64,000 nucleotides of DNA from Gemmatimonadota bacterium (GTDB taxonomy: Bacteria > Gemmatimonadota > Gemmatimonadetes > Gemmatimonadales > GWC2-71-9): assembly GCA_041691295.1 (NCBI GenBank), contig JBEPVA010000001.1:6008-70007 (forward strand), read 5' to 3'. Positions 2,221 to 58,272 of the stretch are shown piece after piece; position 1 is the first letter of the stretch; every line of letters begins with the position of its first letter. A program made the translations under genes and the position numbers. Below the pieces are notes generated by a model. That model was not told the DNA's origin. It searched no databases and was given only the letters and a program-made list of their open reading frames with translations.

Positions 2221-4388
2221 AGCGAGGGACTGGCCAGGTTTTCAGCGGGTTGGCCGGGCAGCGCCGCGAACGGCGCACCGGCGGCGGGGCGGAGATACAG
2301 CGTACCGTTCGGCCTGGTGCGATCACCGACCTGGGTAGTGACGTAGACCAGCTTGCCCCCATCAGGCGCGATCGAGAAGAAGGTGATCGGCTTTTCGCTG
2401 GCGACCACGACCGCGACGCTGTCGCTGCCCGCCGGACGCGTCACGATCTGATACCGGTTGGCGCCGGATTTACGCTCGACCAGATAAGCCACCGATCCGT
2501 CGTGCAGGAAACGCGGCGCGCCTTCCCGCCGGTCGCGGGCCAGCGGCGCGGTGGGCTCACTGGTCTCGGCCATGGCGCGGGTGACCACACCGCTGGTCCC
2601 TTCACGGAATACCACATACGCCAGCTCGGCGCCGTCAGCCGAAATCGCGGGCTCCTGGGTGGCAGCGGTGCCGCCGGTGAGTGCGTGGACGTCGGTGCCC
2701 TGTGTGGTCATGCTGTAGATCTGGCTGTGCCCCGCACGCGACGAGGTGAACACGATCCGCTTGCCATCCGGGGTCCAGACCGGAGTATTGTCGAGACCAG
2801 GTTCGCTGGTCAGCCGCTGCGAATTCAAGCCGTCCGCGTCGGCCACCCAGATATCGAAGTTGCCGGCGCCGCCCTTGTCCGAGCTGTACACGATGCGGGT
2901 CCGATCGGGCGAGTAGGACGCCTGCACGTTGGTCGCACCATCGGCCACGATCGGCACCCACTCACTGGACCGGTCCTGGGCCACGGCGTAGATGCCATAG
3001 CCACCGTGGCGGGACGAAGAGACCAGCAGGTCACCGGTGATATAGATCGTGCTGCTGGCGGACTTTCCTCCGGGCCCCGTGACGGTGACGATCGCGCTGC
3101 CCAGGCCCTGGGCGTGCAGGGTGCCGGTCGAGTCGGCCGTGACCACACTGGTGTCGGAGCTGCGCCAGGCCGGCCGGGGCACCGCACCGAGGCGGGTACC
3201 CTGGTCATCCATCAGCGTCGCGACGAGATGGGTGGTGCTGTCAAATCCAAGCGCCACCCGGGACCGGTCGAGGGCCACGGCGCCAGCCACGACCTCGACA
3301 TTCCAGATGGTGTGTTTGTATCCCGGCGTCGAGGCCTCGAGGGTGGTGCGGCCGATGCCACGGGCGCTGAGCTTTCCGGTGAGGGAGTCAAAGGCCGCTA
3401 CGCTCGAGTCGCCGATGCGCCACGAAAACTGGACTCCGGTGATCGGCGTCGAATCGGCCGCTTCGGCCCGGATCCCGAACTGCCGGGCGGTGCCCAGCGG
3501 AATTCGAATGGCGTCATTGGCCGGCGGACTCAGCACAAACCGGGCAATCTGAGGGCGGACGGTGACAGTTAGCCGGACATCCTGGAGAAAACCCGAGGCC
3601 GAGATCGTGGCCTGACCGGAGCCGACGGCGCGGATCAGGCCGGCCGCCTCGATTGTCACGATGGTGGAATCAGAGGTGTGCCAGACGAGGGTCGAGGCCG
3701 GCAGGCGGCGATTACCCTGGGCGGGAACCAGCACGGCCAGCGAATCGCCGTCGCCGACATTGAGAATCACGCTGGTCTGTTCAAAGGCGAGCGGGGTCAG
3801 CGCCACCGCGACTGGGACCCCGACCACCGGCCCGCTGCTGGCAAAGACTTCTATGGTGCCCTGACCCGCGCCAACGCCGAGGATCGTTCCCAGAGTATCC
3901 GACAGCACCGCTACCTCCGGCTTGGTCGATTTCCAGGTTAGATGCATCGTGGTGACTGGCAGTCCATCCGTCCGGACGCCAGTGACGGTCAGATGACCGA
4001 TTTCAGTGGGCAGGAGCGTGAGGCTGGCCGGCTGAACCGACAAGTCCTTGAGCATCGGCTCAGGAGTTCCCGCCACCAGCACGTCGATGGTCTTGGATTT
4101 CTTGCCGGCCTGGATCACGACCTTGGTGCGGCCCGGCGCCAGCCCGGTGATCGTGCCGCTCGATTCCACCCGGGCAATTCGCTGGTCCCGGACCAGGTAC
4201 TTGATGTCGAGGACCGCATCGCCCTTTTCGTCGTAGGCCTGCACACTCAGTCCGGCCCGCTGTCCCACCTTGAGCAGCACCGAGTCCTGCTGCACGAACA
4301 GCTCGCTGGCGGCCTGAGCCGAAAGGGGCGCCAGCGGCAGGCCGCTGAGCAGCAGCAATGTCAGGAGGGTGCGGACCCGGACCATCAT
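2217..4388 (-). CDS. secreted Ig-like (Big_2-type) repeat protein fused to a PD40/TolB-like beta-propeller
   Basis: Signal peptide MMVRVRTLLTLLLLSGLPLAPLSAQA if the start is 4388 (the ORF opens at 4448). Several Ig-like repeats. C-terminal PD40 repeats (SYSPDRTRIVYSS, PVWTPDGKRIVFTS, PAISADGAELAYV). Confidence 0.8.
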   Translation of the reverse strand: MMVRVRTLLTLLLLSGLPLAPLSAQAASELFVQQDSVLLKVGQRAGLSVQAYDEKGDAVLDIKYLVRDQRIARVESSGTITGLAPGRTKVVIQAGKKSKTIDVLVAGTPEPMLKDLSVQPASLTLLPTEIGHLTVTGVRTDGLPVTTMHLTWKSTKPEVAVLSDTLGTILGVGAGQGTIEVFASSGPVVGVPVAVALTPLAFEQTSVILNVGDGDSLAVLVPAQGNRRLPASTLVWHTSDSTIVTIEAAGLIRAVGSGQATISASGFLQDVRLTVTVRPQIARFVLSPPANDAIRIPLGTARQFGIRAEAADSTPITGVQFSWRIGDSSVAAFDSLTGKLSARGIGRTTLEASTPGYKHTIWNVEVVAGAVALDRSRVALGFDSTTHLVATLMDDQGTRLGAVPRPAWRSSDTSVVTADSTGTLHAQGLGSAIVTVTGPGGKSASSTIYITGDLLVSSSRHGGYGIYAVAQDRSSEWVPIVADGATNVQASYSPDRTRIVYSSDKGGAGNFDIWVADADGLNSQRLTSEPGLDNTPVWTPDGKRIVFTSSRAGHSQIYSMTTQGTDVHALTGGTAATQEPAISADGAELAYVVFREGTSGVVTRAMAETSEPTAPLARDRREGAPRFLHDGSVAYLVERKSGANRYQIVTRPAGSDSVAVVVASEKPITFFSIAPDGGKLVYVTTQVGDRTRPNGTLYLRPAAGAPFAALPGQPAENLASPSL

Positions 4389-4448
4389 TGTCCTGTGGCT
4401 ATGGAAGGCAGGAAGTTTAATCGCGACCGGAGATTTCCCAAGCATCAT

Positions 4449-6554
4449 TCAGTGGGCCTGTCGCGGCAGGCGCTCATCCCAGCTCTTTTCCCGGACTACC
4501 CGACCGCCGCTGCGGATCTGCCGCGTGAAGATGACGTGTAGCTCGGCGCTGTCGGAGACGATTTCGATCCGGGTCCGGAGGTCGAGCATTCGAGTGCCGG
4601 TGGCCAGCCGATGCCATTCCTCGCCGAGGAATCGGGAATGGCCGGGATCGGCATCGGTGGTCTGCCAGGTTTCGTGCTCGGTGTTGGTCAGCCGACGAGC
4701 GCCGACATTGTAGGCCCACGAGGTGAACAGCTGCACCGTGGTGGTCCCGGCCAGCTGATCGTGACTGATTCGGCTGACACCGGGTTCAGGCAGGGGACCA
4801 TCGCGGGAATCGGGCGCGTGTGCCCGTGGTTCCGATGCCGGCAGCGCGGCCAACTGGCCCGGCGCCCCGGGCACAATGGGCAGTTCGATGCCTGTCGCCC
4901 TGGTGCCGACGACCAGCGAAGTGCTCATGGCACGCGGTGAGGGCCACATCATCGGGAACTGGGCATTGGTCACCGCGATCCTGATCCGGTGCCCGGGGTG
5001 GAAGGTCCAGGTGGTAAAATGGAGTTCAAAGGCCAGGTCGTACCATTGGCCCGGCACCAGAGGCGTGCTGACGGTGCTGCTGTCGCGCAGGGTGCCATTG
5101 ATTCCGCCGCCGGTGACAAGGGCGACAGGTCCGTCGGGCCCCACATCCTCCAGCCGCACGATCCAGTTGGCCTGCGGCGCGGTGGCCGATACCCGGAGCC
5201 GCACCAGCGGTGTGCCCACCATCGTGAGGGTGTCCGTCAGCAGCGGCGAGTCAAAGACCAGGCTGCCGGCATCGTCGGGCCGCATATCACCGGTGGTCTC
5301 CCCCCACCAGTCGCCGCCGCGGGTGCCGCTGCCGGCCTGATAGGCCAGGCTGACTATTGACGAGTCGCGCGGCGTTGTGCCAAGTCGTCCTTCGGCCTCC
5401 GGGAAGAAGCTTCGCTTATCGAGGCCCGGAATCGGCCACTGCAAAAAGCGCCACTGCCCGGGCGTCATCTGCCGGCTGGCGTCCGGCGGATGGCCATCCC
5501 GCACGAACGTCATGAACCTCGGCTCCTGAAGCAGCCCGGTGTCCTCGTTCCGGAGCCAGTGATTCCACCAGCGCACCGCGCGGGCACGCCACTCGTAATT
5601 CGGTCCGGGAACGCCGTCATCGGGCCAGGCGTGATTCCACGGCCCGATTTCCACCTTGAGCGGCCCCGGCATCCGGTCGAGCGCCCGGATCGGGGTATCC
5701 CGGTAGCCGTCGAGCAGCCCGCCGATGAGATACGCGGGAATCGTCAGCGCGGCGTAGTTGCCACGGGGAGCGTGCTTGCGCCAGAACCGGCCGTCGATCG
5801 GCTGCTTGAGATAGGTGAGGATCCAGGGATAGGCGGTGAAGCGGTTGGCGAAGTAGGCCGAGTCGAGCGGATAGCCGGGAGTCTGCGGCAAGCCGTTCTC
5901 GTGATCGATCTGCAACAGGTAGGGATCGATGTGCAGTACGCCGTCGACGTAGTGCACATCGTCGTGGAACAGGTCGTCGGAAGCGTGCAGCGCGATGATG
6001 GCCTTGAGCGCCGGGGGATGGCGCATCGAGACCTGCAGCGCGTTGAATCCTCCCCAGCTGATCCCCCACATCCCCACACGGCCGTTACTGGCGGGGGCCA
6101 CGGCCAGCTGCCGGATGATCTCGTCAGCGTCCTCGAGCTCGAGGTCGGAATACTCGCGCGGCGGCAGATGCCCCGTCGATCCGCCGCTGCCGCGGATATC
6201 GACCTTGGCCATGATGAAGCCGCGGCGGGTGAAATAATCGTAGAGCGGAAAGTCGCGCTGATAGAATGAGTCGTCCTTGCGATAGGGCAGGTACTCGAGC
6301 AGCACCGGAAACGTTTCGCCGGGAGTGCGTGGGACTGGCCGCCACCAGGTGATGGCCAGCCTGGTGCCGTCCGGCATCGGCAGAAACGAGTGAGTGGTGG
6401 TGTAGCGGTAATCGCGGGCCACAACCGAGTCGTGCCTCAGCGCGGGGCGCGGTGGCACCGCCAGAGAACCGAGCAGCAACAGTCCGCTCACTACCATAGG
6501 TGTCGATCTCGCTGGGTTGGCTGGACGGGAACGGGGCGCAACCTGGCAAGCCAT
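4449..6554 (-). CDS. CocE/NonD family hydrolase (S15 X-Pro dipeptidyl-peptidase-like)
   Basis: 701 aa. Nucleophile elbow GMWGISWGG. C-terminal domain with GHRIRIAVTNAQFP, typical of the family. The true start may be the internal MVVSGLLLLGS, which would be a signal peptide. Confidence 0.85.
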   Translation of the reverse strand: MACQVAPRSRPANPARSTPMVVSGLLLLGSLAVPPRPALRHDSVVARDYRYTTTHSFLPMPDGTRLAITWWRPVPRTPGETFPVLLEYLPYRKDDSFYQRDFPLYDYFTRRGFIMAKVDIRGSGGSTGHLPPREYSDLELEDADEIIRQLAVAPASNGRVGMWGISWGGFNALQVSMRHPPALKAIIALHASDDLFHDDVHYVDGVLHIDPYLLQIDHENGLPQTPGYPLDSAYFANRFTAYPWILTYLKQPIDGRFWRKHAPRGNYAALTIPAYLIGGLLDGYRDTPIRALDRMPGPLKVEIGPWNHAWPDDGVPGPNYEWRARAVRWWNHWLRNEDTGLLQEPRFMTFVRDGHPPDASRQMTPGQWRFLQWPIPGLDKRSFFPEAEGRLGTTPRDSSIVSLAYQAGSGTRGGDWWGETTGDMRPDDAGSLVFDSPLLTDTLTMVGTPLVRLRVSATAPQANWIVRLEDVGPDGPVALVTGGGINGTLRDSSTVSTPLVPGQWYDLAFELHFTTWTFHPGHRIRIAVTNAQFPMMWPSPRAMSTSLVVGTRATGIELPIVPGAPGQLAALPASEPRAHAPDSRDGPLPEPGVSRISHDQLAGTTTVQLFTSWAYNVGARRLTNTEHETWQTTDADPGHSRFLGEEWHRLATGTRMLDLRTRIEIVSDSAELHVIFTRQIRSGGRVVREKSWDERLPRQAH

Positions 6555-6772: not shown

Positions 6773-7198
6773 ATGGCCGAGCTGAGCATGATGGAGATGG
6801 GCTGGTCTGGTTCCGGTTGGATGGATCCCGCCCCGATGCCGCTTGATCCGGAGCCTGTCACCCCGGCGCCGACAATGCCGCCCCGACCGGCGCCGACCAT
6901 GAGCTCGCCACCGGCGGCGGCCGCCCCGAAGAAGCCAGCGGCCAAGAAGGCAGCCGCGAAGAAGCCGGCGAAGAAGAAGCCAGCGGCCAAGAAGGCGGCG
7001 GCCGCGAAGAAACCGGCGAAGAAGAAGCCGGCCAGGAAAGCCGCCAAGAAGAAGATCGTGAAGAAGGTGGCCAGGAAGCCGGCCAGGAAAGCCGCCAAGA
7101 AGGTCAAGAAGCCGGCCAAGAAGGCCGCCCGCAAGGCGGCGAAAAAGGCCGCCAGGAAGAGCGGCAAGAAAAAGGGCGGCAAGAAGAAGAAGCGGTAG
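6773..7198 (+). CDS. histone H1-like / AlgP-like lysine-alanine-proline repeat protein
   Basis: ATG 6773 is preceded by GGAGGAG (6760-6766). The C-terminal ~110 aa are almost only A/K/P in AAKKPA/KKAARK repeats. The ORF-track start at 6668 lacks an RBS. Confidence 0.75.
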   Translation: MAELSMMEMGWSGSGWMDPAPMPLDPEPVTPAPTMPPRPAPTMSSPPAAAAPKKPAAKKAAAKKPAKKKPAAKKAAAAKKPAKKKPARKAAKKKIVKKVARKPARKAAKKVKKPAKKAARKAAKKAARKSGKKKGGKKKKR

Positions 7199-10776: not shown

Positions 10777-10810
10777 CGCTTACGGCTTAAGGCTTACGGC
10801 TTATGGCTTC
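10777..10810 (+). repeat. heptamer tandem repeat GCTTANG x ~4.5
   Basis: gcttacg gcttaag gcttacg gcttatg gcttcac. The tract runs into the selD ATG (10803). Confidence 0.7.
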
Positions 10811-12145: not shown

Positions 12146-12250
12146 AGGAGTTGGAGTTTGGAATTGGGGATTCCCATTTCCCATTTCCCATTTCTCCGCT
12201 CTCCCCTCTCTGTTCTCTGTTCTCCTTTCGCCTTTCGCCTTTCGCCTTTC
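12146..12250. repeat. composite heptamer tandem-repeat tract
   Basis: ggagttggagtttggaattgggga, then TCCCATT x3, GTTCTCT x2 and CCTTTCG x4. The tract abuts the minus-strand stop at 12249-12251. On the gene's sense strand it reads GAAAGGC x4 and onward. Confidence 0.75.
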
Positions 12251-15084: not shown

Positions 15085-15603
15085 TCAGAGCGCGATAGCC
15101 GCCCGCTCTGCCGCACTGCTGTCGGGCCGGTCAACCGGGCGCGACTTGGATATCACGCTGATGGCCCCATTGTTTTCCAGCACCGCCACATGCACCTCGT
15201 CGATGCAGGTGCAGCCGCCCTGGCGCAGGGCCGCCTGGATTTCATGATGACTCAGGTTGGCGTTGGTCACCACTTCCTGGATCAGCTTGCCGTTGTGAAT
15301 CAGCACCTGCGGCCGCCCCTCGATCAGCGATTCCAGCTTCTTGCTGCGGAACGTCGCGTAGCCCACCGCGAAGTTGAGCGCCACCAGCGTCGCCGCCACC
15401 AGCAGCCCGCCGATCAGTGAATTATCCCCGCCATTCATCGAGTTCTGGACCGCGTTGGACAGGACCAGCAGCAGCACCAGGTCGAACGGCGCCAACTGGC
15501 CGACCTGCCGCTTGCCGGTGATCCGGAGCAGGACGAGCAGGAAGACGTAAACCACCAGTGCCCGGACGATCAGTTCCCACCAGGGGACGGCTAGCGAAAA
15601 CAT
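15085..15603 (-). CDS. DUF421 (YetF-like) membrane protein
   Basis: 172 aa. N-terminal TM helices and the LLRITGKRQVGQLAPFD block typical of the family. Confidence 0.8.
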   Translation of the reverse strand: MFSLAVPWWELIVRALVVYVFLLVLLRITGKRQVGQLAPFDLVLLLVLSNAVQNSMNGGDNSLIGGLLVAATLVALNFAVGYATFRSKKLESLIEGRPQVLIHNGKLIQEVVTNANLSHHEIQAALRQGGCTCIDEVHVAVLENNGAISVISKSRPVDRPDSSAAERAAIAL

Positions 15604-15620
15604 GCCTGGAACTCCCGGTT

Positions 15621-15661
15621 AAGGGCGGGAAAAGCGAAAAGAGAAAAGCGAAAGGGAGAGA
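15621..15661 (+). repeat. purine-rich heptamer arm (GAAAAGC family), left arm of 4HB cassette A
   Basis: gggaaaa gcgaaaa gagaaaa gcgaaag ggagaga. Positions 15634-15656 are complementary to 16112-16134. Confidence 0.8.
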
Positions 15662-15745
15662 CTCTGAGATCTATCGCGTCATTCCGACCAGCTCTCGCGT
15701 AATTGCGGTTACCCGAACGAGGTTGTCCGGTCGCATACTGTCCAC

Positions 15746-16102
15746 ATGAAGGACCACCGATCACTCAAGGCCTGGCAGGAAGCCCACCTCGTCGTAGTGG
15801 GCATTCTCAGGATCGCACGAGAATCATGGAGACCATGGGCGAGCGCAGTGTTCAGCCAGGTCCAGCGCGCCTCGTTGTCGGTGCAACTCAACATTGCCGA
15901 AGGCTGGACCTTTGGTGAATCGCCGACATCCACGCGCCACCTGAGTGTTGCCTATGGTTCAGTGGTCGAGACCCTTGACCTGCTGGATCTGATGATCGAG
16001 GCGCAGATTGCTCCGGAGGCCGAGCTTGCAACGCTGAAGAGCAATGCAGCACAATCTCAGCGCCCGCTACTCGGACTTCTCAAGCGGCGTCGACCGCTAT
16101 GA
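15746..16102 (+). CDS. four-helix-bundle protein (23S rRNA intervening-sequence protein / Avd-like family)
   Basis: 118 aa. Family pattern LKAWQEAH..., QVQRASLSVQLNIAEG, GSVVETLDLLDL. Confidence 0.85.
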   Translation: MKDHRSLKAWQEAHLVVVGILRIARESWRPWASAVFSQVQRASLSVQLNIAEGWTFGESPTSTRHLSVAYGSVVETLDLLDLMIEAQIAPEAELATLKSNAAQSQRPLLGLLKRRRPL

Positions 16103-16105
16103 GGT

Positions 16106-16143
16106 GCTTTTCCTTTTCGCATTTCTCTTTTCACTTTTCGCGC
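16106..16143 (+). repeat. pyrimidine-rich heptamer arm, right arm of 4HB cassette A
   Basis: gcttttc cttttcg catttct cttttca cttttcg. It starts 4 nt after the TGA. Confidence 0.8.
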
Positions 16144-16145
16144 TG

Positions 16146-17615
16146 TCAAGGCTTCAGGCTTTTCCCCGCCCTCATCCGGGCCTCGATATCGCTGATTTCC
16201 CGCGGCGCCTGTGACACCCGCTCCACTCCCGTTGGCGTCACGAAGTAATCGTCCTCGATCCGCACCCCGGTGTTCTTGTAGCGGGCCACTGCCACCCCGA
16301 TCTTGGCGATCATCTGCCGGTTCTTCGGCGTATCCGGCAGCCCTTCGAGGGCCGAGGCGCGGACGTAGAGACCGGGTTCGATGGTAAAGGCATCGCCGAG
16401 CTGGAAGGTGCGGGCCTCGAGGTCGCTGAACTGGGCCGGGTCGTGCACGTCGAGACCGAGCCCGTGACTGTAGCCGTGATATGAATACAGGTACCACTGG
16501 GGGCAGGCCTCACCTTCCTTGCGGTACGGCGGCCGGGTCGGACACAGTCCTTCCGGCGCGTCGAAGGTGGCATCGGCGCTCTCGATCAGCCCCAGCTTCA
16601 CCAGCCCGCGCACGATCACCATCCGGGCCGAATCGTAGGCTGCACTGCTCGTCGTACCCGGTTTGATCATCCGTTCCTCGGCCTTCTGGGCATCGAGTAC
16701 GACCTGGTAGACCGCCCGCTGGTCGGCACTGAAGACCCCGTTGACCGGAATAGTGCGGGTGATGTCAGCCGCATATCCGTCGTAGCTGCTGGCCACGTCC
16801 ATCAGGACCACTTCACCGTTCTGCATGATCCGTCGCCCGGCGTCGTAGTGCAGCGAGGTCGAGTTGGGACCCGACCCCACGATCGAGGAATAGGCCGGTC
16901 GGTCTCCGCCCAGGCGGCGAAAGGCGTATTCCGCCGAGGCCTGCACCTCGTACTCCGCCTTGCCAGCCCCGATCATCCGCAGCGCGGCCACGTGGCCCGA
17001 ATCGCTGATCTCGATGGCCTTCCGGAGCAGGGCCAGTTCGGCCGGACTGCGCTTGGCCCGCAACCGGTCGACCAGCGGCGTGCCGCGACGGACATCCAGG
17101 TTCGGGTGCGCCGCCTTGAGCCCGTTGACGATCAGCGAGCCGTAGGAGGCGGTGTCCCGGCGGGCAAACTCGTTGGCCACCGCATCGCTGATCACGTACA
17201 GGGGCAGCCCGCTGCCCGCCAGCGAATCGAGCAGCGGGGCCAGCCCGGCGCTGTACCGAACGTCCAGACCGGTCTCCTGTGCCAGCGCCACCGGATCGGT
17301 AGTCCTGCCACTGTACAGCGCCCCGCGCAGGTCGGTTGGCGGCACAAACAGCACCGCTTGCGAACTGCCGCCACGCTTGACCATGACCAGTGCGGCATCG
17401 GGATCGAGGTAGCCGGTCAGGTATCGGAATCCGGCGAGCTGCACAAAGGCGGGATAGTGAGCCAGCGGCTCCCGGGCCCCGGCGGAGAAGACGATGCCGC
17501 TGTCGACCTGCGCCAGCACCGCAGTGCGACGGGCGGCATAATCGGCCTGCGGAATCTGGGCCTGAAGAGCGGTAGCGGCCACCGCCGCCGCGCCGGCCAG
17601 GAGAGCGAGTCTCAT
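16146..17615 (-). CDS. Xaa-Pro aminopeptidase (M24B family), secreted
   Basis: Pita-bread metal-ligand blocks DVASSYDGYAADITRT, HGYSHGLGLDVHD and GVRIEDD. ATG 17615 forms an ATGA overlap with the upstream stop and gives the signal peptide MRLALLAGAAAVAATALQAQ. Confidence 0.85.
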   Translation of the reverse strand: MRLALLAGAAAVAATALQAQIPQADYAARRTAVLAQVDSGIVFSAGAREPLAHYPAFVQLAGFRYLTGYLDPDAALVMVKRGGSSQAVLFVPPTDLRGALYSGRTTDPVALAQETGLDVRYSAGLAPLLDSLAGSGLPLYVISDAVANEFARRDTASYGSLIVNGLKAAHPNLDVRRGTPLVDRLRAKRSPAELALLRKAIEISDSGHVAALRMIGAGKAEYEVQASAEYAFRRLGGDRPAYSSIVGSGPNSTSLHYDAGRRIMQNGEVVLMDVASSYDGYAADITRTIPVNGVFSADQRAVYQVVLDAQKAEERMIKPGTTSSAAYDSARMVIVRGLVKLGLIESADATFDAPEGLCPTRPPYRKEGEACPQWYLYSYHGYSHGLGLDVHDPAQFSDLEARTFQLGDAFTIEPGLYVRASALEGLPDTPKNRQMIAKIGVAVARYKNTGVRIEDDYFVTPTGVERVSQAPREISDIEARMRAGKSLKP

Positions 17616-24508: not shown

Positions 24509-24628
24509 AGAGTTGGGAGTTTGGAGGCGGGAGTTGGGAGTTTTCGAGGCAATATAGGACGCCAGACATCCTACTGATTGCTGCGCTTCATTTGCGAGCC
24601 CCTAACTCCACACTCCTGACTCCTAACC
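24509..24628 (+). repeat. gene-less purine arm / pyrimidine arm pair (GAGTTGG family)
   Basis: Arm 24509-24544 reads gagttgg gagtttg gaggcgg gagttgg gagtttt and starts right after the TGA. A 53-nt spacer follows. Arm 24598-24628 reads cctaact ccacact cctgact cctaacc. About 18/25 positions are complementary. Confidence 0.7.
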
Positions 24629-24629
24629 G

Positions 24630-25532
24630 ATGACTGAGGACCGCCCACACGTCGGCATCCTCGGCGCCGGCCTGATGGGCTCAGGCATCGCGCAGGCATG
24701 CGCCGTGGCTGGGTATCAGACCACCGTGCGGGATATTTCCGACGAGCTGCTGGCGCGGGGGCGGGCGGGGATCGTGAAGTCGCTGGGCAAGCTGATCGAG
24801 AAGGGGAAGTTGACCGCGGCCGAGCGGGATGCCGCGCTGGCTCGGCTCAGCTTCACGACCGAACTCTCGGCGCTGGCGGACTCGGGGCTGGTCATCGAAG
24901 CGGTGACCGAAGATCTGGCCGTCAAGAATGAGCTATGGCGGGCACTCGACCGGTTGTGCGGTCCGGAGGCGATCTTCGCCTCCAACACGTCGAGCCTGTC
25001 GATCGCCTCGATGGCGGCGACCACCCGGCGGCCGGATCGATTCGTCGGGCTGCATTTCTTCAATCCAGTCCCGTTGATGCCGCTGGTCGAGGTGGTCCGA
25101 ACCGCCACCACCAGTGACGAGAGCTTTGACCGGGCCATGGCGTTCGGCAGCAGCCTCGACAAGGAGGTCGTGGCGGCCAGGGACACCCCGGGCTTCATCG
25201 TCAACCGGCTGCTGGTGCCCTATCTGCTGGATGCCATGCGCGCCGTTGAACAGGGCACCGCGTCGACCGCCGATATTGATACCGCCATGAAGCTCGGCGC
25301 CGGTCACCCGATGGGGCCGCTCCTCCTGGCCGACCTCGTCGGCCTCGACACCCTGGCCAGGGTCGCCGGGATAATGTTCGCCGAGTATCGGGAAGACCGT
25401 TATGCTCCACCAGCGATACTCGAACGGATGGTCGGGACCGGGATGCTGGGCCGGAAGAGCGGAATGGGATTTTATGACTACGCTACAGATCCGCCCATGC
25501 CCGTCGATCGCAACAAACTGCGTGAGAGGTAA
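24630..25532 (+). CDS. hbd: 3-hydroxybutyryl-CoA dehydrogenase
   Basis: Motifs GILGAGLMGSGIAQ, ASNTSSLSI, HFFNPVPLMPLVEV, PGFIVNRLL. Confidence 0.9.
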   Translation: MTEDRPHVGILGAGLMGSGIAQACAVAGYQTTVRDISDELLARGRAGIVKSLGKLIEKGKLTAAERDAALARLSFTTELSALADSGLVIEAVTEDLAVKNELWRALDRLCGPEAIFASNTSSLSIASMAATTRRPDRFVGLHFFNPVPLMPLVEVVRTATTSDESFDRAMAFGSSLDKEVVAARDTPGFIVNRLLVPYLLDAMRAVEQGTASTADIDTAMKLGAGHPMGPLLLADLVGLDTLARVAGIMFAEYREDRYAPPAILERMVGTGMLGRKSGMGFYDYATDPPMPVDRNKLRER

Positions 25533-25610
25533 GAAGTGAGAGGTGAGAGGGCACTGAGATGAGCCTCCTTTTACCTGTTACCTCTCACCTGTCACCCCTC
25601 ACCTCAACCC
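25521..25610 (+). repeat. gene-less purine arm / pyrimidine arm pair (GTGAGAG family) overlapping the hbd stop
   Basis: Purine arm: cgtgaga ggtaaga agtgaga ggtgaga ggg. Pyrimidine arm: ttacctg ttacctc tcacctg tcacccc tcacctc. Positions 25522-25539 pair with 25571-25588 at 15/18. Confidence 0.75.
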
Positions 25611-48504: not shown

Positions 48505-51500
48505 ATGCATTCACTCCATGTTGGCCCGCCGCGGGCTGCCGCGGCCATCGGGCTTTTCTGCCTGGCCATTCCCAGCCTGCTCCTGGCGCAGCAGGGCCGG
48601 CTGAGCGGCCACATCACCGACAAGGAAACCGGCAAGCCGCTGGAAGCGGCCCAGATCCTGGTCGTGGGTACGACGCTGCTCGAGACCTCCGGCGCCGACG
48701 GCCATTACACCTTCCGCAGCATCGCGCCCGGGCATTACCAGGTCCGGGTCATACGGATCAGCTATGCCGCCAGGCTGGATTCGGTCACCGTCGCGCCCGG
48801 TGAGTCCGCGGTGCTCGATTTTGCGATGAGCAGCGCCCCGGTGCAGCTCGATGAGATCGTCTCGACCGCCACTGGTCAGCAGCGCAAGCTTGAGATCGGC
48901 AATGTGGTGTCCAAGATCGACGCCGCTTCGATCACCAAGGAGGCGCCGGTCACCGAAATCGGGAACATCATCTCGGGACGGGTGGCCGGTGTCCAGGTGC
49001 TCAAGAGCGGAGGCACCACCGGCACCGGCACCAGGATCCGGATCCGCGGCTCCAACAGTCTCTCGCTATCCAATGAGCCCCTCTACTATATCGATGGGAT
49101 CCGGATGGAGAGTTCGTCATCCGGGCTCTCGCTGGACATCGGCGGCGGCATCGGTGGCGGCTCGACCTCCCGGATCAACGATATCAATCCCGACGATATC
49201 GAGTCGATCGAAATCGTGAAGGGACCCGCCGCGGCCACCCTGTACGGCATCCAGGCCGCCAATGGCGTGGTCCGGATCACGACCAAGAAGGGGACGGCCG
49301 GCCGGGCCAAATGGAATGTTTCCACGGAGGGGGGCTCGGTCAGCGATCACAATGCCTACCTGCTCAACTATTTCCCGACCTTCGACATCCTGCCTACCGC
49401 CAGCCCCGAATACCTGGCCAACGGCTTTACCTGTACCCTGCAGGATCAGTTCCTGGGCAACTGCAATATCACCGGCCTCACCAAGTACTCCCCGCTGGTC
49501 AACAAGGACACCAAGCCGCTCAAGGCCGGTTTCCGCCAGCAGTACAACACCAGCGTGTCCGGCGGCACCGACCAGGCCAACTACTTTCTGGCGGCTGGCT
49601 ACGAGAGCGAAGATGGTGTGTTCCGCCTGCCTAAAATGGAAGAGGACTCGGTACGCCAGGCCAACGGCGGGATCATGGCCAGCCAGATCCGGCCCAACAC
49701 CCTGCGGAAGCTGTCGGTTCGGGCCAACGTCGGCGCCAACGTTTCCAAGACGGCGGATATCCAGGCCACGATGGCCTATGTCAGCAGCACCACCCGGCTG
49801 GTCGAGAACGACAACAGCTTCCTGACCATTACCGGCAGCGCCGAGGCCAGCGCCAACACCCCGGATATCAACCGGGGATGGTTCTATACCCCGGCGCAGC
49901 TGTTCGCCGAACTGGCGGAGCAGAACATCGGCCGGTTCACCGGCGGATTGACCACCAACTGGCGGCCCCGGACCTGGCTCACTACTCGGGCCACCGTGGG
50001 GTTTGATGCCACGGCGGAGAACGACAAGAATTTCTTCCCGACCGGCCAGGTGGCAGACTATTCCAACAACCTTCGAGGTGTGCTGCGGCTGAACAAGGCG
50101 AACATCACCCAGACCTCGATCGACCTGGCCGGCACGGCCAACTACAAGTTCAGCGAGGCTCTCACCGCCAAGACCTCGGTCGGGGCGCAGTGGTTCCGCA
50201 ACCTGGTCCGCGGCACGCTTGTGACCGGGACCGGATTGTCGCCGGGGCAGGAAAACCTGGCGGGCTCGTCGGTCGAGGCACGGGATACGTCCTTTGAATC
50301 GCGCACCGCCGGCGCCTTTGTCGAGGAAGCGGTGGCCTACAAGGAGCGCCTGTTCCTGACTGCGGCCGCACGGCTCGATGGCGGCAGCTCGTTCGGCAAG
50401 AACTTCCAGGATGCCATCTATCCCAAAACCAGTGTGTCCTGGCTGACCTCCAACGAACCGTTCTGGCACCTGTCGTGGATGAACACCTTCCGGCTCCGGG
50501 CCGCCTTGGGCGCCTCGGGCCAGATTCCCGGCGCCACCGACGGGCTCAAGTCGTATGTCGGCGTGCCCGGGGTGAAGAATGGGCAGGGATTCAGCGGGGT
50601 ACAGCTGTCCAATAGCGGGAACGACAACCTCAAGCCGGAACGGTCCACCGAGTTCGAAGCCGGGTTTGATGCCGGGCTGGCCCACGACAAGGTCACGGTC
50701 GAATTCAGCTACTACACCAAGACCACTTCGGACGCACTGATTGCGGCCGAGGTGGCCGGTTCGGGCGGCACCCAGCAGATCCAGTTCCGCAACCTGGCCC
50801 GGGTCCGCAATCATGGCCTCGAGCTGGCCATCAGCGCGGCCCCGATCAACACCCCGAATTTCAGCATGGATTTCACCATCAGCGGCTCGATCACCAAGAA
50901 CAAGGTGCTGGCCCTCGGCGCCGGCGACACGGCCCTGGTGTTCGGCTTCTACCAGCAGGACCGGCCCGGCTATCCAGCGGGCGGATTCTGGGGTCTGCCG
51001 CTGCTCGGATACAGCGATGCCAACCATGACGGGATCATCGACCAGTCCGAGATCCGGGTCGGTGACCACGCGGTGTACCAGGGCAGCGCGCTGCCGACCC
51101 GGGAGCTGGCGCTCAACAGCGGGTTCAACTTCTTCCACGACCGGATCCGGCTGGCCAGTCAGTGGGACTATCGCGGTGGCAACATGGTCGACAACTCGAT
51201 GGAAAACTTCCGCTGCAGCGCGGTGTTCAACTGCCGGGCCGAGTTCGACCGGACGGCACCGCTCGAGGACCAGGCCAAGGCGCAGGCCGCCCTGGTGTAC
51301 GGTGGCAACCAGTTCGCATTCATCGAACCGGGCTGGTTCATCAAGTTGCGGGAAGTGTCGCTGACCTTCTACGGCACGCCAAAGATTGCCCACGCCCTCG
51401 GGACCTCCAGCATCAGCCTGACGCTGGCCGCCCGGAACCTGCTCACGATCACCAACTACACCGGCGTCGACCCCGAGGTCAACGCCTTTGGCCAGGACAA

Positions 51501-51573
51501 CTTCGCCGCCAGCGATTTCGAGTCCCAGCCGCAGGTGCGGTATTTGATCGCCCGCATCAACGCCAGCTTCTGA
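48505..51573 (+). CDS. SusC/RagA-type TonB-dependent outer-membrane transporter
   Basis: Signal peptide. Carboxypeptidase-regulatory-like N-domain (GHITDKETGKPLEAAQILVVGT). Plug (DIESIEIVKGPAAATLYG). Barrel ends ..ARINASF. Confidence 0.9.
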   Translation: MHSLHVGPPRAAAAIGLFCLAIPSLLLAQQGRLSGHITDKETGKPLEAAQILVVGTTLLETSGADGHYTFRSIAPGHYQVRVIRISYAARLDSVTVAPGESAVLDFAMSSAPVQLDEIVSTATGQQRKLEIGNVVSKIDAASITKEAPVTEIGNIISGRVAGVQVLKSGGTTGTGTRIRIRGSNSLSLSNEPLYYIDGIRMESSSSGLSLDIGGGIGGGSTSRINDINPDDIESIEIVKGPAAATLYGIQAANGVVRITTKKGTAGRAKWNVSTEGGSVSDHNAYLLNYFPTFDILPTASPEYLANGFTCTLQDQFLGNCNITGLTKYSPLVNKDTKPLKAGFRQQYNTSVSGGTDQANYFLAAGYESEDGVFRLPKMEEDSVRQANGGIMASQIRPNTLRKLSVRANVGANVSKTADIQATMAYVSSTTRLVENDNSFLTITGSAEASANTPDINRGWFYTPAQLFAELAEQNIGRFTGGLTTNWRPRTWLTTRATVGFDATAENDKNFFPTGQVADYSNNLRGVLRLNKANITQTSIDLAGTANYKFSEALTAKTSVGAQWFRNLVRGTLVTGTGLSPGQENLAGSSVEARDTSFESRTAGAFVEEAVAYKERLFLTAAARLDGGSSFGKNFQDAIYPKTSVSWLTSNEPFWHLSWMNTFRLRAALGASGQIPGATDGLKSYVGVPGVKNGQGFSGVQLSNSGNDNLKPERSTEFEAGFDAGLAHDKVTVEFSYYTKTTSDALIAAEVAGSGGTQQIQFRNLARVRNHGLELAISAAPINTPNFSMDFTISGSITKNKVLALGAGDTALVFGFYQQDRPGYPAGGFWGLPLLGYSDANHDGIIDQSEIRVGDHAVYQGSALPTRELALNSGFNFFHDRIRLASQWDYRGGNMVDNSMENFRCSAVFNCRAEFDRTAPLEDQAKAQAALVYGGNQFAFIEPGWFIKLREVSLTFYGTPKIAHALGTSSISLTLAARNLLTITNYTGVDPEVNAFGQDNFAASDFESQPQVRYLIARINASF

Positions 51574-51584
51574 GGAACGCGACC

Positions 51585-52916
51585 ATGAAATCCTCCCTGC
51601 TCATGAGCGCGGCCGCCGCCCTGACCCTGTGCGCCTGCGGCCTGCTCGACACCACCCAGCCAGGCGTCATCAAGCCGGGCGACCTCGACAATTACATCGG
51701 GGCCCAGGCCAAGGCCAAGGGCGCCATCGCGGCCTACGGCTTTGCGATCGACGGTGACGGCAACTTCGACACCGACTCGACCGACGGGATGATCCTGAGC
51801 ACCGGATTGATGTCGGATGAGTTTACCTACGTTGGACCGAATCCGACGCCGCAGGAGTTCAACGCCCATGCCGTGTCCTCGATCAACTCCAGCCTGAGCG
51901 TCCTGTATTTCTACGTCCACAAGGCGCGGATCTCGTCGGAGGCCGCCGCCGTAGCACTCGAGCGGTTCACGCCAGACACGGCGAACGAAACACTGATCCC
52001 CGAGGTACTAAGCCTGGCCGGGATGAGCATCATCAGCCTGGAGGAGAATTTCTGCTCCGGGGTGCCGCTCAGCTACCTGCAGGCGGATACGGTGGTGCTG
52101 ACGTCCGGCTCAACCACCGCCGCGGGGCTGGACTCCGCCATCCTCCGGTTCGACGCGGCACTGGCCCACCCGGCCGTGGCTGTTGACCTCAACATCCAGT
52201 ACCTGGCCCAGGTTGGGAAAGGCCGCGCCCTCCTCGACCTCGGCCAATATGCCGCCGCCGCGACCGCGGTCTCGGGTGTGCCAGATGATTTCCAGTACCT
52301 GTCGGAGCACTCCACCTCCCGGAGCCGACTGCAGAATGCGATCTTCGAGTACAGCACCACCAGCACCGGACTGTTCTCAGTGGCGGACAGCAGCGGCAGC
52401 AATGGCATTCCTTACCGAACGCTGAACGACTCCCGAGTGCCATTTGTGGATACCGGAATCAACGGGCTCGACCTCATCACCCCGCTGTTCTCCATCATCA
52501 AGTATCCCGACGCCGGCAGCCCGATCCCGATCGCCAGCGGGATTGAGGCCCGCCTGATCGAAGCCGAAGCGGCGCTCACTGCCGGTGGTCCGGCGGCCAT
52601 GAATACGATCCTGAATAATCTGCGGGCCGAAAGCGCTGACACCGCCATCAGCAACAACCCGCTGCCGGTGCCGGCCGCCGGGGTGGCGGCCCAGGATCAG
52701 CTGTTCAGCGAGCGGGCGCTGTGGCTATATGCCACCGGCCACCGCCTCGGGGACATGCGGCGCCTGGTGCGGCAGTACGGACGGGCCCGGGACAGCGTGT
52801 TCCCGACCGGACCGTTTCCGAAGGGCGGCAACTACGGAACGGATGTGAACTTCGTGATTCCGGAGAGCGAAGATCACAATCCGCACTTCACGGGGTGTGT
52901 GGATCGGCTGCCCTGA
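51585..52916 (+). CDS. SusD/RagB-like lipoprotein
   Basis: Leader MKSSLLMSAAAALTLCAC. It lies immediately downstream of the SusC-type gene. Confidence 0.75.
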   Translation: MKSSLLMSAAAALTLCACGLLDTTQPGVIKPGDLDNYIGAQAKAKGAIAAYGFAIDGDGNFDTDSTDGMILSTGLMSDEFTYVGPNPTPQEFNAHAVSSINSSLSVLYFYVHKARISSEAAAVALERFTPDTANETLIPEVLSLAGMSIISLEENFCSGVPLSYLQADTVVLTSGSTTAAGLDSAILRFDAALAHPAVAVDLNIQYLAQVGKGRALLDLGQYAAAATAVSGVPDDFQYLSEHSTSRSRLQNAIFEYSTTSTGLFSVADSSGSNGIPYRTLNDSRVPFVDTGINGLDLITPLFSIIKYPDAGSPIPIASGIEARLIEAEAALTAGGPAAMNTILNNLRAESADTAISNNPLPVPAAGVAAQDQLFSERALWLYATGHRLGDMRRLVRQYGRARDSVFPTGPFPKGGNYGTDVNFVIPESEDHNPHFTGCVDRLP

Positions 52917-52923
52917 CGGGCTA

Positions 52924-52978
52924 GGCGGGCGGGCGGGCGGGCGGGCGGGCGGGCGGGCGGGCGGGCGGGCGGGCGGGC
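52924..52978. repeat. (GGGC)n tetranucleotide tract, ~13 units; distal arm of 4HB cassette B
   Basis: ggcgggcgggc... spans 55 nt and starts 8 nt after the SusD stop. It is complementary to 53521-53535, allowing one G:U pair. Confidence 0.85.
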
Positions 52979-53005
52979 CGAAGCTGCCTGCACCGCCACA
53001 AACCA

Positions 53006-53437
53006 TCAAGTCATCGATTGGGCAGGTGGAGTCTTCGACTCCCCGGCCCTTTTGGCTACAGCGGCGTAAAGGCCCCAAGTTAGCCGAGTCGCATGATCCC
53101 TGAGCGCCTCAATCTCACCGTATTTCTCGGCACTTGTGTATTCCAAGTCTCTAGAGAGCAAGAGAAGGTAGGAAAGTTCGGACAATGAGCCGAGCGAAAT
53201 ATCCAAGTATCGACGAAACTCTCGGCTCCCGCGTTTGGCGCAACCCTCGGCGATATTGACCACGGCCGAGACTGCGGCACGGCGAGCCTGGGAAGTCAGT
53301 CCGTAGACCTCGAATTTCGGCCACGACTCGGTCGCGCGGTACGTCGCCAGCGCAAGGTCGTGGCAAGCGACCCAGGCAGTGAATCGCTCGTATGGCTTGC
53401 CAGGGCGTTTCTTAGAAGACTTGATCGTATTGAGCAT
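53006..53437 (-). CDS. four-helix-bundle protein (23S rRNA IVS protein / Avd-like family), second copy
   Basis: The start is taken at the internal ATG 53437. Family pattern FTAWVACHDLALATY, SQARRAAVSAVVNIAEG, GSLSELSYLLLLS. Confidence 0.8.
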   Translation of the reverse strand: MLNTIKSSKKRPGKPYERFTAWVACHDLALATYRATESWPKFEVYGLTSQARRAAVSAVVNIAEGCAKRGSREFRRYLDISLGSLSELSYLLLLSRDLEYTSAEKYGEIEALRDHATRLTWGLYAAVAKRAGESKTPPAQSMT

Positions 53438-53518
53438 ACGATACAGTAGGACCGCCGATGACACTCCGCATAACCGAAACTTTGCGCTGATACCCAAAAC
53501 AACGCCGTAGTCGTCTTT

Positions 53519-53544
53519 CTGCCCGCCTGCCCGCCTGCCCCCCC
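53519..53544. repeat. GCCCGCCT repeat; proximal arm of 4HB cassette B
   Basis: ctgcccgcctgcccgcctgccccccc. On the gene's sense strand this is a purine arm ~80 nt upstream of the ATG. Confidence 0.8.
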
Positions 53545-53568
53545 AAGGTATCCGTTCTCGCCGAATGC

Positions 53569-54579
53569 CTAGGTGGCCGCTAGCCACCCCATCCCTCCCG
53601 CCTCCGCCATCCTCGACTGGTGCGGCTGGAACATGTAACGCCCCCGCACCGGCAGCCGGAACTCGAGAATCGCCCGCTCACTCGGACCCAGCGTCACGGT
53701 GTCGGTCCGCTCATCGGGAACGAGCCGAGTGCCGCTGCGGTACAGATCAAACGCCTGGGCGTGCAGATGAAACGACACGGATGGATCGGAGGCGCTGAGG
53801 TTGACCAGGTAGATCCGCACCAGCTCACCGACGGGCACCTTGATCGGATAGCGGGCAAAGAACCCGGCCACCCCATTCCAGGCGTACAGATCGTTTTGAC
53901 CGTCCCCGTCCAAGTCGAAACCGGAGAGTGCCAGCACCAGCTCATGGGCCGCTGGCCGCCCGCCCGGCGGATCGACGATCATGGTGCCGTACAGCCCGTG
54001 CGCCATATGCTCGGACACCGGCAGCGCGTGACAATGATACGGATGCACCCCGAACGGCTCGGCCGTAAACCGATACGTCGTCTCACCGCCGACCGGCACC
54101 GGTTCCCAGCCATCCTGGTTCACATCATGGGTGCCGTGGAAATGAACGTTGTGCGGGTGACTGCCCTTGTTGGTGAAGTGGACCGCCAGCTGATCCCCTT
54201 CGGTGGCCCGGAGAATCGGACCCGGCACCGTCCCGTTGTAGCTCCAGGCCTGGAAGGTCCGGCCTCGGGCCACTTCGATGGGCATTTCGACCGCAGTCAG
54301 TTCGAACTGCCTGGCCCTTCCCCGGGCCCCCGGTTCGAATGGCGGCGGGATGGTCAGCCCATCGAGCGCTTGCGGCCCCAATGACTCGGGTGGCTCGACC
54401 CCATGAGAATAGAGCGAATCGCCGGGCATCATCGCATGAGGATTCGGGCCCATCGGAGTGACCATCTGGTGCCCGCCATTTCCCGCCCGTCCGGCGAGAT
54501 ACCCGCCCAGCGCTCCCGCACCGCCAATCACGCCGAGTCGCAGCAGCTCCCGGCGCGTGATCCCGAAGGAATCGTTCAC
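53569..54579 (-). CDS. Tat-exported multicopper oxidase domain protein
   Basis: GTG 54579 makes a GTGA overlap with the upstream stop. Tat leader RRELLRLGVIGGAG. Copper motifs HPHNVHFHG and HCHALPVSEHMAHGLYG. Confidence 0.8.
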   Translation of the reverse strand: MNDSFGITRRELLRLGVIGGAGALGGYLAGRAGNGGHQMVTPMGPNPHAMMPGDSLYSHGVEPPESLGPQALDGLTIPPPFEPGARGRARQFELTAVEMPIEVARGRTFQAWSYNGTVPGPILRATEGDQLAVHFTNKGSHPHNVHFHGTHDVNQDGWEPVPVGGETTYRFTAEPFGVHPYHCHALPVSEHMAHGLYGTMIVDPPGGRPAAHELVLALSGFDLDGDGQNDLYAWNGVAGFFARYPIKVPVGELVRIYLVNLSASDPSVSFHLHAQAFDLYRSGTRLVPDERTDTVTLGPSERAILEFRLPVRGRYMFQPHQSRMAEAGGMGWLAAT

Positions 54580-56582: not shown

Positions 56583-56665
56583 GCCTTTTCGCTTTTCGCT
56601 TTTCGCTTTTCGCTTTTCGTTGTTCGCCCTCTCACCTCTTACCTCTTACCTCTCACCTTTTACGA
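56583..56665 (-). repeat. composite heptamer tract (GTGAGAG family then GAAAAGC family on the sense strand), overlapping a stop codon
   Basis: The plus strand reads CTTTTCG x4-5, then ccctctc acctctt acctctt acctctc. Positions 56626-56656 are 29/31 identical (as reverse complement) to 25522-25552. Confidence 0.8.
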
Positions 56666-57965: not shown

Positions 57966-58004
57966 GGGCAGATCGGCTTCCCGTGGCTATTCAATAGTCA
58001 GTGA

Positions 58005-58046
58005 CCCTCGACCCTCGACCCTCGACCCTCGACTCTAGACTCTACA
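58005..58046 (-). repeat. heptamer tandem repeat CCCTCGA x4 + CTCTAGA + CTCTACA (GTCGAGG family on the sense strand)
   Basis: Overlaps the TAG stop (58042-58044) of the DUF3565-like gene. Confidence 0.85.
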
Positions 58047-58230
58047 CTCCGCCACAGAGCCGACATTCCAGCTCCATCCCAATCTTGCCGTCGCGCCCAT
58101 CCGGCGTGGTGACCCATTCCCGAACCTGCCACGGCGGATCGTGCCTCACGTGCTGGTTGTGGCCACACTCAAGCTCAGCCACCCACTGTTGCTCGGCATC
58201 GAGATGAAACCCGGTGATTTTCCGGCGCAT
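58042..58230 (-). CDS. DUF3565-like small protein
   Basis: 62 aa from the internal ATG 58230. WVAELECGHNQHVRHDPPWQVREWV...ELECRLCGG matches the family pattern. Confidence 0.6.
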   Translation of the reverse strand: MRRKITGFHLDAEQQWVAELECGHNQHVRHDPPWQVREWVTTPDGRDGKIGMELECRLCGGV

Positions 58231-58236
58231 AGCTAT

Positions 58237-58272
58237 TCGCCCGTCTCGCCCGTCTCGCCCGTCTCGCCTGTC
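58237..58272 (-). repeat. 9-nt tandem repeat TCGCCCGTC x4
   Basis: Fills nearly the whole 49-bp spacer between the upstream stop (58280) and the DUF3565-like start. Confidence 0.8.

Follow-up and report, generated by a model that had tools for sequence, protein, structure and literature searches.

The window analysed here, a 64,000-nucleotide (nt) stretch of contig JBEPVA010000001.1 from a metagenome-assembled Gemmatimonadota bacterium of the order Gemmatimonadales (GenBank assembly GCA_041691295.1, positions 6,008 to 70,007), contains on its minus strand a small gene that lies between two mutually complementary arrays of short tandem repeats. We refer to this unit as cassette B, and to a similar unit elsewhere in the window as cassette A (Table 1). 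A sequence-only reading of the window had placed the arms, spacers and open reading frame (ORF) of cassette B on the minus strand, and all of these coordinates were reproduced. The 5' arm begins 24 nt past the stop codon of an upstream multicopper oxidase gene, the 3' arm starts 7 nt from the stop (52914-52916) of a convergent neighbouring ORF, and the loop between the arms is about 540 nt. Over 24-28 nt the arms are 86-88% complementary, and they are paired in the minimum-free-energy fold of both strands. When the whole 64-kb window was searched for a second plus-strand match to (GCCC)6 with up to 3 mismatches, none was found beyond 53521-53544 (chance expectation 0.01). The proposed pairing of the arms was confirmed, though not with the single G:U pair that had been described: over the 24-nt arm three stem positions depart from Watson-Crick pairing (T at 53520, 53528 and 53536), and these are G.U in the plus-strand (antisense) RNA and A.C mismatches in the gene-sense RNA.

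The public gene call at this locus (P0001, 193 aa, GTG at 53587; 53006-53587, minus strand) reads across the 5' arm and the promoter-like region; the 143-aa start at 53437 is favoured because of the homologue alignment and the conserved promoter boxes. The encoded protein matches Pfam PF05635 with E=3.7e-28 (98.3 bits, cut-off 33.8) and TIGR02436 with E=7.7e-27 (93.7 bits, cut-off 24). Its best solved relative is PDB 2gsc (XCC0516), a pentameric four-helix bundle, with E=6.3e-19 by sequence, and PHROG 3206, 'Avd protein of DGR' (diversity-generating retroelement), matches it with E=9e-7. More than 6000 homologues exist, and the named ones among the best matches are from Gemmatimonadales. PF05635 alone was detected in the protein, with no recombinase or nuclease signature; a PADLOC scan for defence systems gave zero matches, as did a tblastn search of phage genomes with the protein.

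Cassette A has the same order of parts (arm, spacer, gene, arm) built with a GAAAAGC unit, as the sequence-only reading had noted, and its protein is a distant paralogue of that of cassette B (PF05635 E=5e-16; 34% identity over 80 residues). Profiles and layout together bear out the description of cassette B as a second gene of the intervening sequence (IVS)/Avd family that is laid out like cassette A but uses another arm unit. Both cassettes do carry TACTGT ahead of the ATG, at a distance of 5 nt in B and 4 nt in A (5-7 nt in the sequence-only reading).

Cassette B is flanked by a multicopper oxidase plus beta-helix operon and by an ORF without a Pfam match. The latter (51558-52913, downstream of a 1022-aa ORF at 48505-51573) had been taken for a SusD gene, an assignment that we did not recover: zero Pfam matches were found for it at E <= 0.001, and this flank is not syntenic in relatives. 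A direct-repeat search around the cassette found short chance pairs only. Rfam families gave zero matches anywhere in the window and the flanks of cassette B are protein-coding, so that it does not lie in a 23S rRNA helix (9, 25 or 45). We are nearly certain of the identity and architecture of cassette B as a foldback PF05635 gene cassette.

Table 1. Positions of cassette B, cassette A and the gene-less hairpins in the window.
Feature	Position	Strand	Description
Cassette B, 5' purine-rich arm	53519-53544	-	gene strand GGGGGGGCAGGCGGGCAGGCGGGCAG, about 3 copies of the 8-mer GGCGGGCA (tandem-repeat period 8, 2.8 copies)
Cassette B, arm-to-gene spacer	53438-53518	-	81 nt; the "leader" of the sequence-only reading, probably a promoter region
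Cassette B, upstream conserved box	53471-53479	-	TTTCGGTTA; corresponds to AAnTGGTT of the family, about 24-31 nt ahead of the -10-like hexamer (anchored alignment, 36 cassettes)
Cassette B, -10-like TAnnnT hexamer	53443-53448	-	TACTGT, 5 nt ahead of the ATG
Cassette B, four-helix-bundle gene	53006-53437	-	143 aa + stop; ATG 53437-53435, TGA 53008-53006; PF05635 / TIGR02436
Cassette B, stop-to-arm spacer	52979-53005	-	27 nt, between stop codon and 3' arm
Cassette B, 3' pyrimidine-rich arm	52924-52978	-	(GCCC)n on the gene strand; plus strand (GGGC)13.8, 100% matches
Cassette A	15629-16139	+	(GAAAAGC)n arm 15629-15653; (GCTTTTC)n arm 16107-16139
Cassette A, PF05635 gene	15746-16102	+	ATG at 15746, stop 16100-16102
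Cassette A, conserved boxes	15703-15711 and 15736-15741	+	TTGCGGTTA and TACTGT; the second box 4 nt ahead of the ATG
Gene-less hairpin 1	24510-24627		(GAGTTGG)n, 58-nt loop, (CCTAACT)n
Gene-less hairpin 2	25522-25604		(GTGAGAG)n, 22-nt loop, (CCTCTCAC)-type arm

Spread of the gene-in-hairpin build

Homologues were collected by scanning one genome per species, which yielded 80 loci, all from Gemmatimonadales or Gemmatimonadota, and an inverted pair of arrays around the gene was called with Tandem Repeats Finder and a complementarity test. An inverted tandem-repeat arm pair is present in 70 of the 80 loci and weaker arms in a further 4; 4 loci, in which an end lies near the gene, were not judgeable, and arms are absent from 2 of the 76 judgeable loci (L012 and L041 only). 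In the 70 loci the distance from arm to arm is 403-548 nt (median 473) and the median arm lengths are 41.5 and 48 nt. The spacers are variable, with 40-165 nt between the 5' arm and the gene and 0-105 nt on the 3' side. The arm units differ from locus to locus and range from 4-mers to 28-mers (CAGCGGGG, GCGGGTAG, GACGGAAA, GAGGTCGTA and GGCGGTCAAGAAGCAAC, among others).

The same build was found in 10 of 12 plasmid-borne homologues, among them cassettes of Nostoc, Aulosira, Calothrix, Pseudanabaena, Anabaena, Picosynechococcus, Geminocystis, Stanieria and a cultured Gemmatirosa. In another of the ten, from Azospirillum lipoferum (L088), the PF05635 ORF and its arms lie inside a match to bacterial large-subunit rRNA (1618 bits); degenerate heptamers (GAGGACG/GATGACA) make up the arms, at 939-968 and 1378-1407, and the start of the ORF falls within the 5' arm. 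This locus is a classical 23S rRNA IVS. Coordinate arithmetic puts the insertion near model position 1155, which would fit helix 45. No further rRNA IVS copies were found in the plasmid set besides the query itself. The gene-in-hairpin build is a family trait, seen in Gemmatimonadales and cyanobacteria as well as in one true rRNA IVS.

We can practically dismiss the explanation that the arms are chance low-complexity sequence or an artefact of assembly. The genome is GC-rich (64%) and short-read contigs do end in or at arms (L173, L174, L188 (same organism, other assembly), L094, L096, L002-L004, L008, L019 and L050), but the chance expectation given above is far below one match, and the build recurs in at least 70 independent assemblies, among them finished plasmids and contigs that are hundreds of kb to 2.5 Mb long.

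Several loci hold more than one unit or a variant of it. Tandem cassettes or extra arms are present in L013 (~2381-4546), L018 (275-1283), L061 (632-3321) and L071 (3360-3505); every gene of a tandem has its own arm pair, and in L071 a second G-rich array and a short loop lie between the gene and the C-rich arm. Similar inverted arms surround 300-400 nt with a short non-PF05635 ORF at L177 3481-3960 (52 aa) and at L061 620-1060. In five cyanobacterial plasmid loci (L084, L085, L086, L087 and L092) the genes are wedged within operons, at cas6/cas4 (type I-D), at cas10/cmr3 (type III-B) and between par genes; arms are present in 4 of these 5, L092 being without them.

Arm complementarity, orientation and site occupancy

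The two arms of a cassette match each other far better than they match the arms of other cassettes. In 74 loci the best ungapped complementarity was scored; its median is 23 between a cassette's own arms and 8 between non-cognate arms (95th percentile 18). A closer comparison is possible at the nadB site, which is bounded by the start of nadB on one side and the end of a convergent gene on the other and holds a cassette in 19 species, with further relatives from metagenomes. Of 20 positions compared in this orthologous set of 19 loci, 18.7 match between cognate arms and 16.2 between non-cognate ones (permutation p <= 5e-5). The units differ between the species (AGCGGGGC, AAGCGGGT, AAGCGGGG, ACAGCGGG and GAGCAGAG, among others), and in most of the loci the upstream unit is the reverse complement of the downstream unit. 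The cognate advantage at the nadB site therefore argues that the arms are not drifting independently. It had been proposed from the window that complementarity, and not arm sequence, is what is conserved, and both comparisons uphold this.

The interior of the cassette is found in both orientations relative to the same flanks at 5 of the 10 sites represented by several genomes (for example L029/L076, L042/L071, L049/L069, L067/L073 and L036/L045), and a sixth site is ambiguous. In the first of these pairs the flanks are reversed (L029 3344-6289 aligns with L076 2931-1, and L029 724-2930 with L076 5579-3353), while the cassette itself aligns forward (L029 2848-3420 with L076 2837-3437). L042 and L071, both of a single sampling survey, lie on contigs (760 and 597 kb) that we take to be long-read assemblies, and with arms of ~50 nt they have the same flip pattern, which makes an assembly artefact unlikely. 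Proteins of opposite orientation at the same site are mutual closest relatives (0.73-0.79 identity, up to 0.95, against 0.55-0.58 for other loci), and their cassettes have a common arm type. The purine-first polarity of the arms is no argument against inversion, as the polarity of a palindrome is equal on both strands and unchanged by a flip.

The simplest reading of an interior that flips between species is that the arms exchange as DNA, which would explain their covariation without selection at the level of RNA. DNA-level exchange between the arms is probably what keeps them complementary. The arms would be homogenised mainly by gene conversion or template switching between them, and crossovers in the same exchange process would flip the interior. 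The conserved complementarity had been taken to point to an RNA-structure constraint or to insertion of the gene into pre-existing hairpin-forming repeats; it does not single out the former, given that half of the shared sites are inverted and that DNA recombination alone homogenises arms.

Protein identity correlates with arm similarity across loci (rho 0.30), as would also be expected if the arms were repeated binding sites for the encoded protein, that is, symmetric operators or iterons with an autoregulatory role. Short tandem units are typical of protein-binding arrays, and Avd-family proteins bind nucleic acid. We nevertheless regard such a role as very unlikely: the units vary widely (GAAAAGC, GGGC, GACGGAAA, 28-mers) among proteins that are still 55-80% identical, near-identical orthologous proteins are found with different units, and shared descent predicts the correlation between protein and arms equally well.

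Sites can be empty, hairpin-only or full. The nadB site is full in the 19 species and in L093 and L095, cleanly empty in L098, L099 and L101, with ~10-25 nt between the two genes, and hairpin-only in L102, L096, L097 and L105. The L102 hairpin consists of eleven GGCGGACN units, a 50-nt loop and a complementary arm, and has the arm type of the full L008 cassette; when it is compared with the ends of that cassette, the arms align and the similarity of the loop is too weak for a call. No PF05635 remnants were detected in the gene-less loops of L102, L096, L097, L177 and L061.

The site of cassette B itself is linked to the 3' end of the beta-helix and multicopper oxidase operon. It is full in the closest relatives, L068 (94% oxidase identity; arms GGGGGGCA) and L006 (GGCGGGCC/GCCCGCCT), in both cases with arms that differ from those in the window, and in L173 and L174 (82% oxidase identity) the contigs stop within a G-arm that starts directly after the stop codon. 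An arm tract kept where the gene is absent had been named as an outcome that would tell against the sequence-only reading; on the oxidase side, where this was run, the gene-lacking relatives L175, L176 and L178 (oxidase 69-71%) are also without both arms. A relative at 66% oxidase identity has (CTCGGCGA)n arms around ~400 nt with a 52-aa ORF instead.

These states bear on whether the hairpin preceded the gene. General intergenic hairpins, terminator-like, REP-like (repetitive extragenic palindromic) or STRR-like (short tandemly repeated repetitive), might have received a promoter-plus-gene module in either orientation. This order of events would fit the gene-less hairpins in the window (24510-24627 and 25522-25604) and in the flanks of at least 12 loci, the hairpin-only nadB site with the arm type of a full cassette (L102 and L008), the gene-less loops free of detectable four-helix-bundle remnants, arms that are locus-specific and differ between copies within one genome, and the occurrence of either orientation at one site. 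It is set against cassette ends that are not conserved, arm-to-gene distances that are not fixed, cassettes without an associated recombinase, opposite-orientation proteins at one site that are mutually closest, and a protein identity that tracks arm similarity even across loci; the L177 and L061 arms enclose other short ORFs, so gene specificity is unproven. Taken together we find a hairpin-first origin rather doubtful.

Alternatively the cassette could be a mobile foldback element, whose arms and gene move as a unit and whose protein is a mobility or maintenance factor. A role of this kind for the IVS protein was proposed by Ralph and McClelland, as cited in PMC4990558. The cassettes form a multicopy family at no fewer than 10 distinct syntenic sites, with many singletons and 2 copies in 64 kb; L098, L099 and L101 provide clean empty sites, L013, L018 and L061 tandem cassettes, protein and arm similarity correlate, and cassettes are wedged within cyanobacterial cas and par operons. 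Yet arms are never common to the copies of one genome in our sample, target-site duplications or defined termini were not seen, sites are stable over 19 species, and the protein is without a recombinase or nuclease signature, which leaves a mobile element improbable.

The two gene-less hairpins of the window differ in their settings: hairpin 1 occupies a divergent intergenic region, with start codons abutting both of its arms, and hairpin 2 separates two genes of one strand, lying after the stop of the first and before the start of the second. Other intergenic 7-9-mer arrays are present at 10778-10809, 12171-12250, 56585-56658, 58003-58049 and 58237-58272 (units GCTTACG, TTCCCAT/TTCGCCT, CTTTTCG/CCTCTCA, GACCCTC and TCGCCCGTC); a complementary partner is not obvious nearby, and these arrays may be orphan arms. 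Long imperfect repeats (AAGAAGCCAGCGGCC and related 12-48-nt periods) also occur at 6863-7195, inside a 181-aa minus-strand ORF that looks like a lysine/alanine-rich repeat protein.

The spacer as a probable promoter and a proposed role of the stem

The ~80 nt between the 5' arm and the gene had been described as a leader. A TAnnnT hexamer lies 5-7 nt ahead of the candidate start codon in 34 of 72 loci, with counts of 8, 17 and 10 at 5, 6 and 7 nt before the start against a background of 0.71 per distance, and in an alignment of 36 cassettes anchored on this hexamer a second box, AAnTGGTT, is conserved 24-31 nt further upstream. The remaining spacer is not conserved, save for a GAAATGAT motif in a minority of loci. 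With these two conserved boxes a promoter is the better reading than a 5' untranslated region, and judging from sequence conservation we think that the spacer more probably acts as an internal promoter than not. So short a distance between a -10-like box and the ATG points to an mRNA with little or no leader. Transcripts begun at such an internal promoter would be without the 5' arm, and the stem could then form in read-through RNA only.

Both neighbours converge on cassette B, and their stops lie 7 nt and 24 nt from a G-rich arm; with no terminator in between, neighbour transcripts must at least enter the arms. The favoured course of events would then be as follows. The internal promoter would give a leaderless or near-leaderless mRNA with only the C-rich 3' arm, and read-through RNA from a neighbour would meet a G-rich arm within 7-24 nt of the stop and, on crossing both arms, would form a GC duplex of at least 24 bp. 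The rRNA-borne members offer an analogy: RNase III would cleave the duplex, the cassette would be lost from host transcripts, and an insertion would thereby be tolerable inside transcription units. We hold the processing of read-through RNA by RNase III, drawn as it is from that analogy, to be a tentative proposal at somewhat less than even probability.

A stronger role for RNA would make the structure itself the primary constraint, with the arms selected to pair in a transcript that spans both and the gene carried in the hairpin loop. The arms do pair in the fold of either strand, and it is at a stem of just this kind that rRNA-borne relatives are processed; in the cyanobacterial copies and the Azospirillum IVS the start and stop codons adjoin the arms or fall within them, so that both arms must be transcribed there. 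Stem mismatches on the sense strand are also more often G.U than A.C (99 vs 64, p=0.008); this small excess was counted in loci that are related, and transcription-linked C-to-T mutation confounds it. Against this, promoter-like boxes lie inside the arms in Gemmatimonadales, the copy in the window has A.C and not G.U in its sense RNA, and the inversions reveal an exchange at the DNA level that is sufficient for the covariation. We consider a primary RNA-structure constraint unlikely.

On balance we favour cassette B as a foldback gene cassette that is the non-rRNA counterpart of the ORF-bearing 23S rRNA IVSs, with arms homogenised as DNA and an internal promoter, and a number of observations count against this. 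As to inversion, 24 contigs from many samples that encode an identical protein (P0009) have one orientation only, and their arms are essentially identical in the 8 places read, bar one 1-nt indel; inversion is not a fast switch. Orientation is fixed at the nadB site (19 genome and 2 metagenome loci, 0 opposite) and at the oxidase site (3 to 0), the interior of L042/L071 is more diverged than its flanks (71% vs 81-90%), and opposite orientations could in principle result from independent insertions into one hairpin. In a nadB tree the empty, hairpin-only and full states are interleaved, and the direction of gain or loss is not inferable from it. As to transcription, no full sigma-70 consensus (-35/-10 hexamers at 16-18 nt spacing) was found in either cassette region of the window, and no TAnnnT peak precedes the 48 long ORFs of the window (5 of 48), so that the box is cassette-specific and not a habit of the host. 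The gene-sense stem of the window copy is interrupted by an A.C mismatch every 8 nt, and no intrinsic terminator (GC stem-loop plus U tract) was found in 52700-53800 or 15400-16300. Any role at the RNA level would hinge on read-through if the gene is transcribed from between the arms, and we infer each of RNase III cleavage, the transcription start and the leaderless mRNA.

At the nadB site the neighbouring gene has a conserved box of its own: a TATATT/CATATT lies 5-6 nt before the nadB ATG in full, hairpin-only and empty sites alike (L001 and other nadB-site loci; L098, L099, L102 and L105), and where the site is full only 10-31 nt separate the nadB start codon from the repeat arm. A conserved element of ~100 nt is found upstream of nadB in three metagenome contigs, in L103 (1-538) and in L104 and L106 (~2250-2500); Rfam at gathering thresholds gave no match to this element, which may be a regulatory RNA.

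Significance and comparison with known systems

ORF-bearing rRNA IVSs, the Avd homology and cyanobacterial heptamer repeats are each already known. In the limited collection of literature that we searched, we found no description of non-rRNA PF05635 genes between inverted tandem-repeat arrays, of concerted arms or of interior flips. The function and origin of rRNA IVSs and of their ORF have been open since the early 1990s, and likewise those of the cyanobacterial heptamer repeats. Should the gene-in-hairpin unit prove common outside rRNA, it would offer hundreds of natural replicates with varying arms, empty sites and both orientations, which would make structure, processing, recombination and protein function directly testable. 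There are practical consequences as well: gene callers extend the ORF through the arm, short-read assemblies break at arms, and where cassettes sit within operons, cas operons among them, the expression of neighbouring genes could be altered by a long duplex or by a flip.

A wider and more speculative proposal, which we rate as improbable, is that PF05635 proteins are the dedicated partner of tandem-repeat foldback hairpins across bacteria. rRNA IVSs, STRR-type inverted heptamer arrays and the Gemmatimonadales cassettes would then be one class of element, with the protein responsible for making, maintaining or moving the hairpins, and with hairpins that have no gene as non-autonomous relatives.

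Several known kinds of element resemble the cassettes in part. The palindromes of REP and bacterial interspersed mosaic elements (BIMEs), and the U-less terminators of high-GC bacteria, are GC-rich intergenic hairpins right after stop codons, like the gene-less versions described here; unlike REPs and BIMEs, the cassette stems are tandem repeats, have no consensus common to copies and no U tract, and many enclose a gene. The cassettes also do not look like insertion sequences or miniature inverted-repeat transposable elements, since their arms differ between the copies of the window and between those of one metagenome-assembled genome, and neither a transposase nor target duplications were seen. 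Invertons share with the cassettes a promoter-bearing segment between inverted repeats that is found in both orientations, whereas the cassette flips were seen between species and not within a population, the cassette arms are locus-specific tandem arrays, and no invertase gene was found near cassettes.

The foldback (FB) transposons of Drosophila have long inverted arms of short tandem repeats, arms that are more alike within a copy, a variable loop and inversions; they are eukaryotic and much larger, with a transposase in some copies. The cassettes resemble them in the build of the arms, in the likeness of arms within a copy, in the variable loop and in the inversions, and homology is not expected. 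Cyanobacterial STRRs are 7-8-nt tandem units in intergenic DNA, like the cassette arms, and STRR-like arrays flank PF05635 genes as inverted pairs on plasmids of Nostoc, Aulosira, Calothrix, Pseudanabaena, Anabaena, Geminocystis and Stanieria. STRRs were defined in heterocystous cyanobacteria, whereas the cassettes here are from Gemmatimonadales and have units of 4-28 nt. We know of no gene partner assigned to STRRs, and our literature search found no link between them and the PF05635 family.

With the Avd proteins of diversity-generating retroelements the cassette B protein has in common a homologous four-helix-bundle fold and its family (PMC10053308), although cassette B, unlike Avd loci, has no adjoining reverse transcriptase and no pair of template and variable repeats. 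The closest counterparts are the ORF-bearing 23S rRNA IVSs of Leptospira, Coxiella, Brucella, Xanthomonas and Azospirillum lipoferum (L088), in which, as in the cassette, a PF05635 gene lies in the loop of a long terminal-inverted-repeat hairpin. In the 428-nt Coxiella IVS a terminal stem of 28 bp, in which RNase III cuts, closes a loop that holds an S23p ORF (PMC4990558). Unlike these, cassette B lies outside rRNA, between the ends of two convergent protein-coding genes, and it differs also in its internal promoter-like boxes, in arms that are clean tandem arrays, and in an RNase III processing that we infer only. IVS and cassette are alike in total length (~430-620 nt) and in stem length (~24-30 bp), the L088 stem is itself made of degenerate heptamer repeats, and cassette B has both the terminal inverted-repeat stem of ~20-30 bp and the S23p-family ORF in the loop by which such IVSs are recognised.

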